Positions 43,387 to 58,372 of a stretch of DNA of 64,000 nucleotides are shown piece by piece. Origin of the DNA: Eledone cirrhosa (taxonomy: Eukaryota); assembly GCA_964016885.1 (NCBI GenBank), contig OZ024762.1:12958001-13022000 (forward strand), read 5' to 3'. Position 1 is the first letter of the stretch. Every line of letters begins with the position of its first letter. The notes beneath the pieces are model-generated. The model worked only from the letters and a program-made list of their open reading frames with translations. It was not told the origin of the DNA and ran no database searches. The position numbers were made by a program, and so were the translations under genes.

Positions 43387-43432
43387 GGATCTAGCTGTCG
43401 AAACGGCCGGAGCTCAGCCGTCGGGGTCCTGA
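43387..43432 (+). mobile_element. Half copy of the GTCGAAACGGC foldback family (subfamily B)
   Basis: GATCTAGCTGTCGAAACGGCCGGAGCTCAGCCGTCGGGGTCCTGA between TA runs. Confidence 0.8.
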
Positions 43433-43461
43433 TATATATATATATATATTTTTTTTTTATT

Positions 43462-43660
43462 AAGGCTAAATAGTGAGTTTTGTTACTCTGGAGTTTCGCC
43501 TATTTATCCTAGTGTCACCAGATAAGAACTCTAATGGCCCTGTGATAAACAGGTGAAACTCCAAAGTAATAAGACTCACTACTTAGCCTTGATGAAATGA
43601 TTAAAACTCTACTTCGGTATTGAGTACTTGTTTCTCTCAGCCGTCAACCAACGGACGGAT
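43462..43660 (+). mobile_element. Foldback element (47-bp arms, 35-nt spacer) with hammerhead 3' half and tail
   Basis: Arms 43462-43508 and 43544-43590; GT-GAAA-CTCCAAAG-TA; tail contains GTATTGAGTACTT. Confidence 0.65.
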
Positions 43661-44399
43661 ATATATATTCTTCTTCTTCTTCTTCTGTTTTCCCCTGTCT
43701 CCCTCCTCCTCCACCTCCGCCACGTCCTATACATGTGCACTCTCGCTCTCTTCCCCACTACCAACCTAAACCTCCTCACCCCACACCGCCATAAATCTCT
43801 CCCACCCACCCCTTTCTCTTCTGCCACTATTTCATATCTCCCTCCCTCCCCCACCCACACTCCTACTGTTCGCCACATCAATCCTTTACACCGCCGCCCT
43901 CACATCTCTCACCCCACCACGTCCCGCTCATGGTTTATTGTTGTTGTTGTTGTTGTTGTTGTATTGAGTTAATATCTTAGTCATTTTGTTCGGTGTGTCT
44001 GGGCGGGGGCGGGTGGATCTGTGTGTGGGTGGTAGTGGTTAAGGTGGGAGTAATGGTGGTAGTGTTGGTGGTGGTGTGGCAGTAAAAATAGTAGTAATTG
44101 TAGTAGTAGTTGTAGTAGTAGTAATAGTAGTAGTAGTAATAGTAGTAGTAGTAGTAGTAGTAGTAGAAATAGTAGTAGTAGTAGTAATAGTAGTAGTAGT
44201 AATAGTAGTAGTAGTAGTAGTAATAATAGTAATAGTAGTAGTAGTAGTAGTAGTAGTGGTAATAATTTTAGTGATTGTAGTAATAGTAGTTGTAACCACC
44301 ACCACCACCACCAACACCAACACCACCACCACCAACACCAACACCACCACCACCACCACCATCATCACCACTACCACCACCACTACATAACTTTCAATC

Positions 44400-44535
44400 C
44401 ATTAAAGCCGCCATTCTTTAAAAGCCGCCATTAAGAAATAACCAATTAAATAAGAACAGAAAGGAATTCCGGAAGTGTGAGGTTACCACACGGTTTCATA
44501 TCCGGTCCATCAACCAGTAGGCCATTTTGGATTCC
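44400..44535. promoter_or_regulatory. Housekeeping-promoter-like island: three YY1 sites, CCAAT, ETS
   Basis: GCCGCCATT 44407 and 44424; CCAAT 44442; CCGGAAGTG 44469; GCCATTTTG 44521; GC boxes ~44000. Confidence 0.5.
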
Positions 44536-46657
44536 TGTGGACTTTTCGTGTTATATACACACACACAAACACACACACATATATATACATATGTATACAT
44601 ATATATATATATATATATAAACTGATATATATATATATGTAGGTATATATAAATGATTATATATATATAAATAATTATATACACAAATAATTATATATAT
44701 ATATAAACTGATATATATATATGTAGGTATATATGAGTTTTTTTTATATATATAAATCATTATATATATATATATATAAATGAAAATAGAGAAATTAATG
44801 TGAGCAAGAAGCCAACAGTATATATATATATATATATATATATATATATATATATATATTCGCTAACACACATCTGTGAGAATACATACTCACACACACA
44901 AATATTATATATATATATATATATATATATATATATATATATATATACAAACATAAACTATCGAGATTCGCATTTCGGCCCACGTAATAACGAAAAACAA
45001 CCTCCGAGATGTGAGGCAAGTGCTCAATGATTCAGATGAACCAGAGCTATAACAAACGTTAAAGGCCAAACACACTGAGACGATGGTTAAACAATCATTA
45101 GCATATCCCCCCCCCAAAAAAAAAAACGATAAAGTAATTCGGGTATTGAAAATTTACCCGGACCCCTGGAAGGTTGGTAAAATCCAGTATTTGGGTTTCT
45201 GCGGCTCCTAAATCAAGTACCGTCCGCTTACATAAATAATGTCAGGCTTCTGGTAAGATAATTGAACAAGGAAGCCACTTTCTCAACAGGTTTTAGTTCA
45301 ATGTTAATACAGGACTGACTATTGCTGACTCCACGTGGGGATCGGCAAGGGAGGCATCCCCTAAATCAGGCGAATAAATTCAGTTGTGTATATTTTTGCA
45401 AGAATGCATATATATATATATATATATATATATATATATACAATATTTACGTACCGAGAGAGAGAAGGAGGGATAAGTGATACATGTAGTTATTTGGCAA
45501 TAGCGAATGCAAGGGTGCTCAATACTAGTGCCGGCAGTGTAAAATATTAGAAGTGTTAATATCTAGTGGGCGAGAGAATTTGCAGAGCGTAAGCACGTGG
45601 AGAAATAAACATAGGAGAACAAACCGTTAAAACATGGTCGGGTTGTTGGCGACTAAACTGGCAACCCTACCAAGGTTTCTTGGTGAGGAGGGTGACTTTG
45701 GACATCCTGCAGGACTAAAAACAAAACCTGTCAAAGGGCAAAGGAGCTCTTAAGAGTCAATGGCCATCAAAAATCACCGGGAGAGATGACCCCTTAGCTT
45801 TTGTCAAGGCAGAATTCTAGGAGAAGGAAAACTCTGATATAACACCTGCAACTCTGATGGTATCTAATGATGTTGACTTGTTCTTCTTTTTGGTAAATAT
45901 CATCTTGGTTAAGAGAGTGGAACTGGCTTTGTGCAGTGCCTTTGCTCACTATAAAAGATTCACGGTACATGCATTGCTTTATATCTGGAGATCTCTCTGC
46001 ACTTGTCGTCACATGGTACCATGAGCCCAGGACTATGTGTCAATAATTGTCACAAGTGTAGTGTTTGTACCAGAGTTTTCAAGTCGCTGGCTGGACTAAA
46101 AAGTCACACTCGTTCAGCGCATCGGTAGGGGTTCTCCTACATGGATATAAAGTAGTGGCCGTACTTGAAAACGAGTTGGCACACACACACTCACACATAT
46201 ATATATAACAACCATATGAACAACAACAACAGGAACAAGAAAACTACAATAAGGTCTTACTTTACGGCGTTCCTCGCCAAGCATCAGTCTCTCCTCCAAA
46301 GTATTCACATGTCCAATGCTAGGAACATCTAAGGGTTACTAGTGCTTCCACCGCAACACACCACTTAGTCAAAATATAATTAAACGCCATCTCAGAGTCA
46401 AACCTGATTGAAAGATGAGAAGGAAAGAAAAACAAAGAAATGTATAAATGGCATACAGGTATATATATATATATAAGGTATAAATGGTATACAGGTGTAT
46501 ATATATATATATATATATATATATATGCAAAAGTTCTATTTAAAATTGTTGGGATACAACAAGTAAATATTTTTATAACTGATATAAAGCACTCAACAAG
46601 TATTTGGAGTAGATGTACGATAATAATAAATGGAAACTATATTTATAAAACCATATT

Positions 46658-55280: not shown

Positions 55281-55962
55281 AAAATATAAAAGCATATATA
55301 TATATATATATATATATATATATATATATATATATATGTGTGTGTGTGTGAATGTACTATATACATATATATTTGTGTGTACTATATACATATATATATA
55401 TGTATATATATATATATATGTATATATATATGTACATATTGTATAGCTGATTTATAGGTACCAATATGAACAAACAAGACACGGGTTGAGTGTAGAGATG
55501 AAAAAAATATTTTCCTTATATATTTCTATATATATATATATATATATATATACACACACACACACAAATATATATATATATATATGTTTGTCTGTTTGTC
55601 TCTGTATGTGTGAGTGTGTGATGCTATTATTATACAACGTTAGAATACCATAACGTAATAAATGTTATAATATAATATATAATGAGATATATAATATAAT
55701 ATAGACTTGATAATATATTATAATATATTTATCTGAATATATTTATCACACCTATATATATATATATATATATATATATATATATATGTATATATATATA
55801 TGTATATATTAATTTATATATATACATATATACATATACCTATATATATATATATATATATATATATATATATATATATATATATATGTATATATGTATA
55901 TATTTATTTATATATATACATATATACATATACATATATATATATATATATATTATTTATAC

Positions 55963-56042
55963 TCCAGTCCTACAAACTGTAGAGTGCTTCTTATCCGATA
56001 TCTGCATTGCTTTATTGTACTACAATAAAACTCACCTCCTAC
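55963..56042. mobile_element. Second copy of the 80-bp element at 18552 (inverted)
   Basis: Exact reverse complement by eye. Confidence 0.8.
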
Positions 56043-56316
56043 ATATATATATATATATATATATATATATATAAATATATATATATATATATATATATGT
56101 CTATATTTATTTATATATATACATATATACATATATACATATATATATATATATATATATATATATATATATATATATATATATATATGTATATATATGC
56201 ATACATATATACATATATGTCTATATTTATTTATATATATATATATATATATGCATACATATATACATATATATAAATATACATACATATGTATGTATAT
56301 ACGTACATATAAATAT

Positions 56317-56413
56317 TGTCCCCAAAAATGTATGTACACTTCGATTATCTGTACAGGCAATATTTATTAGAATGCTGTTGAAGTGTGTATACATTTTTTG
56401 GGGACACCCTGTA
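56317..56413. mobile_element. Tc1/mariner-like MITE (~100 bp)
   Basis: TGTCCCCAAAAATGTATGTACACTTC / GAAGTGTGTATACATTTTTTGGGGACACCCTG-TA; the right end reads TA-CAGGGTGTCCCC, mariner-like. Confidence 0.65.
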
Positions 56414-58280
56414 TATATATATATATATATATATATATATACATAAATATGCATATATATGTATATATATATATATATATATATATATATATATATATAT
56501 ATATACACATATATGTATACATTCATACATACACACACACACACACACACACACACACATATATATATATATATATATATATATATATATATATATATAT
56601 ATATATATATATATATGTATATATATATATATACATACACATATATATATATATATATATAAATGTGTATATAATAAGATAAGAAGTTGTATTTATACGA
56701 TATTAGATAAGATATAATGTCGTATGACATAATATAAATCCACATACACACACACATACACACACACATACACACACACACACACACACACACACATATG
56801 TATATATATACATGTATGCATACGTGTATATATATATATGTTTGTTTGGGGTTAGAGAGATAGGTACCGTGTGTATAATATTACGAATTCAATTTTCACA
56901 AACCTTAGAAAATAATATATGTATGTATATATATATATATATATATATACATATATATATATGTGTGTGAGTGTGTGTGGATGTGAGTGTGTCATATATA
57001 TATATATATATATATATTTAGATACATAATATATATATGTATATATATATATAAACATATATATGCGTGTGTGTGCATGTATAGTCATTTATATATATAT
57101 ATATTTAGGTACATAAACACATATAAATATATATATACACATATATATATATACACATATATATAGCTATACATATATATATACATATACATATATACGT
57201 ATGTATACTCTATATATAATATTTATACACCGTCACAGACATGTTTCAAGCATACTTTATATGTATGTATATATATATATATATACACATACATACACAC
57301 ACACACACACACACACACACACACACACACACACACACACACACACACACACACACACATATTTATATATATATATATGTATATATATATATTTGTGTGT
57401 GTGTGTGTGTATATATATATATACATACACACGAAAGTAATATGTCTGTGCGTTACTAACGATGAAGTCTGTGTAAATATATCTATGTGAATATATGTGT
57501 GGAAATGTATGTGTAAGATGTGTGAGGGAACGTGTGGGTGTGTGTGTAACAATATGTATGTATGCGTGAATGTGTGTCTAAGTGTAAGGATATGTGTGTA
57601 AATGTATGAGCGTGTAATAGTATGTTAGTGGATGGGTGTGTTGAATATTAGTCGTAGCTCTACATTATTCTGAAATTTACTCTACTGTTAATTCTGAAGC
57701 TATGTAGCAGCTTGACACTTGCATATGCATATATATATGTATATATATATGTATATATATATATATATATATATATATATGTGTATATATATATATGTAT
57801 ATATATATATATATATATGTGTATATATATATATATATATATATATATATATATATATATATGTATATATATATATATATATATATATATGTGTATATAT
57901 ATATATATATGTATATATATATGTATATATGTATATATATGTATATATATATATATATATATATATAAATATATATATATATATATATATATATATTTTT
58001 ATATATATGTATATATATGTATATATATGTATATATATATATATATATATATATATATATATATATATATATATATATGTATATATATATGTATATATAT
58101 ATATATATATATATATATATATATATATATATATATATATATTTATATATATGTATATATATATATATTTATATATATATATATATATATATATATATAT
58201 ATATATATATATATATATATATATATATATATATATATATATATGTGTGTATGTATATATGTGTGTATATATATATATAT

Positions 58281-58372
58281 ATAGGAAAAGAATCAGGACC
58301 CCGACGGCTGAGCTCTGGCCGTTTCGACAGCTACATCCGTTATGGCTTCTTACCACACTTTCATCATTGTTA
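58281..58372. mobile_element. Internally deleted foldback family copy (subfamily B)
   Basis: Left arm TAGGAAAAGAATCAGGACCCCGACGGCTGAGCTCTGGCCGTTTCGACAGCTA joined to tail end TTCTTACCACACTTTC. Confidence 0.75.

Follow-up and report, generated by a model that had tools for sequence, protein, structure and literature searches.

Palindromic repeats with half a hammerhead in Eledone cirrhosa: a probable core-less remnant of a Penelope-like element

How does a repeat that carries only half of a hammerhead ribozyme come to be copied, and where does its mirror-image second arm come from? These questions are raised by a family of short palindromic repeats with six copies in a 64,000-nucleotide stretch of the Eledone cirrhosa genome (contig OZ024762.1 of assembly GCA_964016885.1, positions 12,958,001 to 13,022,000 of the forward strand; hereafter the window, with its first letter as position 1). 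A first-pass annotation, made from the letters of the window alone, had reported the six copies and a hammerhead-like 3' half in them; the copies are real, and a motif scan of the window finds nine arms in total, each reading GTC-GAAA-CGG. The same annotation proposed that the second arm is made at each insertion by snap-back or template switching at stem II, with loss of the ribozyme core. We arrive at a different mechanism. The reading that we prefer, with a probability of about 0.6, is that the family is a non-autonomous, core-less remnant of the terminal repeat of a Penelope-like element (PLE), and that a PLE reverse transcriptase (RT)/GIY-YIG protein copies it in trans, with two complementary DNAs (cDNAs) primed at a TA-repeat target. 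A PLE origin as such is a firmer claim, which we hold with high confidence: the family works like, and likely derives from, a PLE.

Layout of the six copies

The three full copies, A1, A2 and B1, share one layout of inverted arm, short axis, sense arm and 78-nt tail, and the longest copy measures 204 bp. The tail is found on the sense-arm side only, in 3/3 full copies. Full copies had been described as palindromic, which is correct as to the inverted arm but overlooks this tail. The copies and their parts are:

46926-47125 (+), full copy A1
46926..46984 (-), A1 inverted, tail-less arm; 59/59 identical to the A1 sense arm
46985..46988 (no strand), A1 axis, TAGC; varies across the family
46989..47047 (+), A1 sense arm: putative decayed stem II, GAAA, stem III with palindromic loop, UC site, stem I 3' strand
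47048..47125 (+), A1 one-sided tail of 78 nt, with an 11-nt motif at 47069-47079; reads end in TA runs at 47048 and 47122
52563..52766 (-), full copy A2, arms 58/59 identical, tail 72/78 identical to that of A1; tail 52563-52640, sense arm 52641-52699, axis 52700-52707, inverted arm 52708-52766
52075..52272 (+), older full copy B1, tail 65/78 identical to that of A1; inverted arm to 52132, axis 52133-52134, sense arm 52135-52194, tail 52195-52272
55217..55279 (+), A3, a tail-less arm ending at the axis; 59/59 identical to the A2 inverted arm
43388..43432 (+), B2, a single short arm that starts near the axis and is without the outer 10 nt
58282..58370 (+), B3, an inverted arm (58282-58337) followed by the last ~33 nt of the tail (58338-58370), with no sense arm

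Half copies had been said to stop near the axis. A3 and B2 do so; the copy at 58282 (B3) is not a plain half copy but an inverted arm joined to a tail end, and is the example in the window of this arm + tail form. A3 (55217-55279) equals the A2 inverted arm (52704-52766) over 61 nt, including part of the axis, at a distance of 2.5 kb, and is possibly a local duplicate or a sibling insertion of A2. All the copies were correctly placed in TA runs: a run of at least four TA units lies within 2 nt of at least one end in 6/6 copies, and within 31 nt of both ends in 6/6. Such runs make up 22.6% of the window, of which simple repeats mask 42,559/64,000 bases.

Arm divergence, axis and folding

The two arms of a copy differ at 0/59 positions in A1 and at 1/59 in A2, while arms of A1 and A2 differ from each other at 3-4/59. 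The young copies are thus closer within than between, as the first-pass annotation expected. The arms of B1 differ by 8 mismatches and 1 gap over 57 columns. The axis letters also differ as reported, being TAGC in A1, TAAATTTA in A2 and GA in B1. The 17 nt before GAAA align without gaps between subfamilies A and B (12/17 identical), and the sense arms of both start at one and the same base of this segment. In B1 the segment forms a bulged stem (-2.6 kcal/mol); in A1 and A2 it gives no fold. We read this segment as hammerhead stem II, decayed in subfamily A, and the axis as the 5' edge of stem II, directly 3' of the expected position of the core. The earlier placement of the fold axis at stem II would hold for this edge, and not for the stem II loop.

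The A1 hairpin folds at -137.1 kcal/mol (z -19.4), and 0/200 shuffles were equally stable; its half-ribozyme sits inside the 59-bp hairpin. Single sense arms fold no better than shuffles. Hairpins of the family also score against many microRNA models of Rfam.

The copies lack the hammerhead core

A hammerhead scan of the window found five core-bearing motifs, all outside the six copies, which bears out the earlier statement that no copy has CUGANGA: CTGANGA is absent from all six. The 5' strand of stem I is also absent in cis from the six copies. GAAA, stem III and the UH site are present in nine arms, with one stem III change in the sense arms of A2 and B1. Judged by sequence, the six copies are likely end-pieces of dead ribozymes, from which self-cleavage would not be expected without a core. 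The hammerhead reading of the arms is supported because of their position in intact, core-bearing sisters, described below.

Four further minimal type I hammerhead motifs in the window, at 51873 (+), 46714 (-), 41313 (-) and 41949 (-), have a mostly palindromic, TA-rich stem III and are likely the ends of other Penelope-like families.

Sister families and relatives in metagenomes

The 11-nt tail motif, exact or with one change, recurs in the window at 27611 (-), 40583, 43617, 52216 and 52619 (-). It belongs in part to sister families with the following features:

27559..27755 (-), sister family C; same layout and tail motif, unrelated arm sequence, arms 65/66 identical; intact core CTGATGA at 27687-27681; the axis (27690) falls within the 5' strand of stem I, immediately upstream of the core
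52004..52043 (-), half copy of family C, ending inside stem II; 39/40 aligned letters match
43462..43658 (+), sister family D, parts read by eye; tail motif at 43617
40560..40628 (+), decayed tail with the 11-nt motif at 40583

The sense arm of C holds a whole minimal type I hammerhead. In D the tail-less arm has a one-change core (minus strand, 43521-43515) and the 5' strand of stem I, while the tailed arm is cut inside stem II, with the junction GGCC at 43536-43539; the tail-less arm of D extends further upstream than the tailed one.

A pattern combining core and tail motif fetched 142 loci (23 viral, 119 from metagenomes), which were then put through a stem test. It was passed by 5/119 metagenome loci and 0/23 viral loci, and the others were taken as chance. 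Two of the passing loci, L083 (2948-3189) and L090 (2766-3027), are palindromes whose axis falls immediately 5' of the core, and have flanking direct repeats of 14 and 15 bp; a third, L073 (160-300), is an un-inverted hammerhead with tail. All three lie in animal-like metagenome contigs. No RT open reading frame (ORF) was obvious by eye at the five loci. A second viral scan gave 46 loci, five with a loose upstream core-like match and none convincing, and a family-specific pattern had 0 matches in metagenome contigs and 0 in prokaryote genomes. A fourth passing locus, L056, holds at 3434-3699 a palindrome of 268 bp (94%) whose arms are hammerhead-like and whose centre is rich in TA.

Since C, L083 and L090 share layout and tail motif with our copies yet keep the core, core loss is particular to subfamilies A and B, and the earlier idea that the fold axis itself removes the core does not generalize. 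Around the tail motif, an upstream complement that would form a bulged hairpin occurs in 5/6 window tails, 2/5 hammerhead loci and 9/137 other loci. The folds are weak (-2 to -5 kcal/mol) and RNAalifold gave no consensus pair around the motif; a conserved bulged hairpin here is tentative.

The family in sequencing runs

We compared sequencing runs with A1 as the query at 80% likeness: run X1, which consists of contigs and may be the assembly's own sample, and three reduced-representation (RAD) read runs from another study. A1-like sequence was found in 11,820 X1 contigs and in 20,872, 21,520 and 24,534 RAD reads, each run having ~12.5 million. The family is very abundant, with the qualification that depth does not equal copy number; the same holds for the summed contig depth, whose arm:tail ratio is 1.45.

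Among the eight X1 contig pieces listed, four span the sequence left of TTTC, the axis and the sequence right of GAAA, and reads of the three RAD runs carry small deletions at the axis. The palindromes are therefore not fold-back read artefacts, a risk that the first-pass annotation had raised. The axis is heterogeneous across the family, with 1-13 letters missing at 46985-46991 and mixed AT-rich loose ends at 46985-46989. Just 5' of 46989 the loose ends have an AT-rich consensus without CTGANGA in three runs (573-641 reads, agreement 0.46-0.53). Just two positions collect read ends that pass into TA runs: 47048, with 2,897-3,338 reads per run, and 47122, with 1,159-2,284. Another pile of read ends, 7,135-9,399 molecules at 46995, falls on an AATT and probably marks a cut site of the library, not biology.

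Rearranged joints were also seen. Among the 15 shown, of 49 in total, nine link the axis, at 46976-46986, with the end of the arm or the beginning of the tail, at 47036-47059, and a tenth has the same inverted arm + tail form read on opposite strands. One axis-to-arm/tail joint is present in reads of all three RAD runs. Joints of central deletions were found as well (46966-47006 and 46969-47002).

Variants shared by both arms of a copy had been called private. The match within copies stands, but the variants are common in the family. In run X21, ~18% of reads have the A1 letter at 47025, as do ~36% at 47035 and at most ~20% at 47040; for the A2 letters the shares at these three positions are 82%, 37% and 36%. 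Shared variants therefore do not by themselves date the copying of an arm to each insertion. Manufacture of the second arm at insertion is still plausible, given the closer arms within copies and the variable axes.

How the second arm may be made

Twin priming is the most economical reading of these data. A TA run nicked twice would offer two cut ends, each of which would start a cDNA on the same short RNA: one at 47125, where the tail ends, the other at 47047, where the arm ends. The two cDNAs would run to the 5' limit of the usable template, the first base of stem II, and be joined head to head at short self-complementary ends. If the tail cDNA stopped early, an inverted arm + tail product would result. 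The core would have been lost once, in the founder of subfamilies A and B, after which the family spread without a working ribozyme. Two cDNAs from one template would give matching arms, a fixed axis with variable letters and a one-sided tail, and twin priming would also account for later free divergence of the kind seen in B1, for arm + tail by-products and for the unequal arms of D.

In the snap-back mechanism of the first-pass annotation, a cDNA would reach stem II, fold back and copy itself by self-priming; an endonuclease would then have to trim the second arm at the tail boundary. It draws on the near-perfect palindromic axes (that of A2 above, and a 1-nt loop in C) and on the identity of arms within young copies. 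Precedent exists too: head-to-head palindromic junctions are described as common in PLEs and put down to self-priming (Arkhipova 2013, PMC3846280), and the PLE tail is attributed to endonuclease resolution (Craig 2021, PMC8557442). We nevertheless consider it unlikely. A tail-less arm requires the extra trimming step, and snap-back yields neither the inverted arm + tail copies (B3 and the joints in the runs) nor family D, whose tail-less arm holds more upstream sequence. Moreover, the purified lizard PLE protein (Poseidon PAc, from Anolis) is reported to cut and extend both target strands, with reverse transcription beginning at two RNA sites that bracket the tail (Frangieh 2024, PMC11167929). 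The inverted arm joined directly to the tail favours priming from both cut ends over snap-back. Quite unlikely, in our view, is a single origin of the palindrome (a C-like palindrome with its core might, for instance, have suffered a central deletion) with copying of the whole unit thereafter, in which case half copies and axis variants would be later hairpin-induced deletions, and the likeness of the arms would reflect inheritance plus conversion within the hairpin. The arm variants are indeed common in the family, the axis lies at one homologous place in A and B, and central deletions exist, as noted above. Yet the arms of B1, with 8 mismatches, diverged freely, which speaks against strong conversion after insertion; A1 and A2, so close in their arms, still have different axes; and the arm + tail joints end near the arm/tail boundary.

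A third possibility differs from twin priming in the template only and shares its insertion mechanism: the copies would be independent, extreme 5' truncations of an autonomous, core-bearing PLE, whose RT stalls on leaving stem II. PLE insertions are typically heavily 5'-truncated by the account of Craig (2021, PMC8557442), and stem II is also where the half copy of C and D's tailed arm end. We find this very unlikely, as all three read runs have AT-rich loose ends where the core would be expected, and the putative stem II is unpaired in subfamily A. The remaining candidates, which are highly improbable and largely refuted on the evidence above, are a TA-inserted miniature inverted-repeat transposable element (MITE) of DNA-transposon origin, a Helentron-type element, a fold-back sequencing artefact and a split ribozyme cleaved in trans. 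In a MITE, each terminus is an inverted repeat. Long inverted repeats with TA on either side would suit one, but here the inverted repeats are not terminal, a tail lying outside them on one side, and sisters with unrelated arm ends share the hammerhead and tail motif, two of them with 14-15-bp flanking repeats. An artefact is contradicted by the contigs, and reads from other runs, that cross the axis. Trans cleavage, which the first-pass annotation had offered as an alternative, fares no better: the window contains no core with a matching stem I strand, and the half-ribozyme is locked in its -137 kcal/mol hairpin.

Several observations weigh against twin priming of a core-less PLE remnant. Of the window's 125 ORF pieces, the 43 tested gave 0 Pfam matches to RT or GIY-YIG, and no autonomous partner came to light; the PLE link therefore rests on the layout and on the hammerhead and tail motifs. 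The Rfam hammerhead models give the sisters 20-26 bits, against a gathering score of 48.5, and two of the five loci that passed the stem test (L056 and L136) look like chance or decayed matches. The core-bearing master that the first-pass annotation predicted was not seen among the 24 of 722 loose ends shown, though a rare one is possible. Most reads have their axis hidden by what is probably a restriction site at 46995. Joints of the arm + tail form make up only a small fraction (contig depth 15-105, compared with millions) and may have arisen when one arm of a hairpin was later deleted. Because the shared variants are common in the family, both arms may have been inherited from palindromic masters. 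Target-site duplications are unreadable inside the TA runs at the six copies, and the family tail, at 78 nt, is longer than the 30-40 nt described for PLEs in the source cited below.

What the family may represent

Tentatively, and with rather more doubt than conviction, we suggest that the family is a self-perpetuating, ribozyme-free "PLE-SINE" (after short interspersed nuclear elements): an RNA of ~140-200 nt with RT-binding and priming signals only, mobilised in trans, whose mirror arm is rebuilt at each insertion by twin priming. If so, such an element would be present at tens of thousands of sites or more, each copy a perfect hairpin at birth, and it would parallel in nature the minimal, core-less RNA that serves as template in vitro. 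The hammerhead would then be dispensable for PLE mobilisation in nature, and the tail motif common to sisters from other animals would mark an RT recognition site. The genome would hold a genome-wide record of how PLE inverted repeats form, with arm divergence as an internal clock for each insertion. Young copies in their thousands, a fixed axis and one-arm by-products would make twin priming and snap-back testable against each other from the genome alone. Hairpins of this kind could be mis-annotated as MITEs or microRNA precursors.

Other features of the window

Among the Rfam rows listed for the window (150 of 505), all are microRNA models on repeats and hairpins apart from one real mir-184, whose precursor lies at 21553-21632 (-) with 62 bits against a gathering score of 54.1. 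Other repeats and remnants are:

51321-51638, an old, unexplained inverted repeat of 318 bp with 66% identity
45441-46179, a remnant in which Pfam matches a C2H2 zinc finger at 45955-46125, though below the cut-off (E 6e-05), and which we take to resemble the ORF end of a long interspersed nuclear element (LINE)
9964, 10824, 22339, 23496, 25551-26669 and 41520, a SINE-like dispersed repeat, which makes 157-nt tandem units at 25591-26503
28523-29095, 22818-23293 and 59882-60328, local minisatellite arrays

Comparison with known systems

The layout itself is already known for PLEs, and a regenerated second arm is a known PLE trait, for which self-priming has been proposed (Arkhipova 2013, PMC3846280). 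As described by Craig (2021, PMC8557442), PLE insertions often include an inverted 5'-truncated copy, have a 30-40-bp tail at one end and prefer (TA)n; the same source and Arkhipova (2013, PMC3846280) state that the origin of PLE inverted repeats and tails is unresolved. Here, an inverted 5'-truncated copy stands head to head with a sense copy in A1, A2, B1, C, D, L083 and L090, the tail is at one end only, and the target is AT-rich or (TA)n at 6/6 copies. The family thus resembles the described insertion units of endonuclease-bearing (EN+) PLEs in its palindromic head-to-head junction, one-end tail and (TA)n targets, and the sisters L083 and L090 have flanking direct repeats. Unlike those units, the copies are without an ORF, measure ~200 bp and have their axis fixed at what we read as the 5' edge of stem II. 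In the literature searched, with Repbase/Dfam and most subscription papers outside the search, no core-less, fixed-axis palindromic PLE family and no such tail motif were described.

According to Cervera & de la Pena (2014, PMC4209133), PLE terminal repeats bear hammerheads of a minimal kind, in which stem III is palindromic. Our copies are like the metazoan PLE type I hammerheads of that report in C-GAAA, the palindromic stem III loop, the UH site and the 3' strand of stem I, and the motif is complete in the sisters C, L073, L083 and L090. Unlike them, A and B are without CUGANGA and the 5' strand of stem I, and stem II appears decayed in A. Non-LTR retrozymes, as described (Cervera 2020, PMC7229834; bioRxiv 10.64898/2026.07.22.740005), are likewise short, non-autonomous, PLE-derived and hammerhead-related. 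However, retrozymes have tandem direct repeats, active ribozymes and circular RNAs, whereas this family has dispersed inverted repeats and a dead ribozyme; tandem direct repeats with a complete hammerhead in each were not found in the copies.

In L1 twin priming, as reviewed (PMC9148063), the second DNA end primes internally and an inverted 5' part is joined to the 3' part, a product that resembles the arm + tail copies of this family. The internal site in L1 is described as variable and the inverted part as unduplicated, whereas here the site is fixed and full palindromes are common. The closest biochemical parallel by description is PAc (Frangieh 2024, PMC11167929). PAc is autonomous, unlike this family, and the available text of that study describes neither palindromic products nor a natural core-less family for it. 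By the same account, ribozyme mutants leave PAc insertion unimpaired, and PAc uses an RNA cut to +20 of the ORF, which starts at stem II, past the core. Extension of both strands, start sites that bracket the tail, a dispensable ribozyme and templates that begin past the core are all features that PAc would share with the element proposed here.

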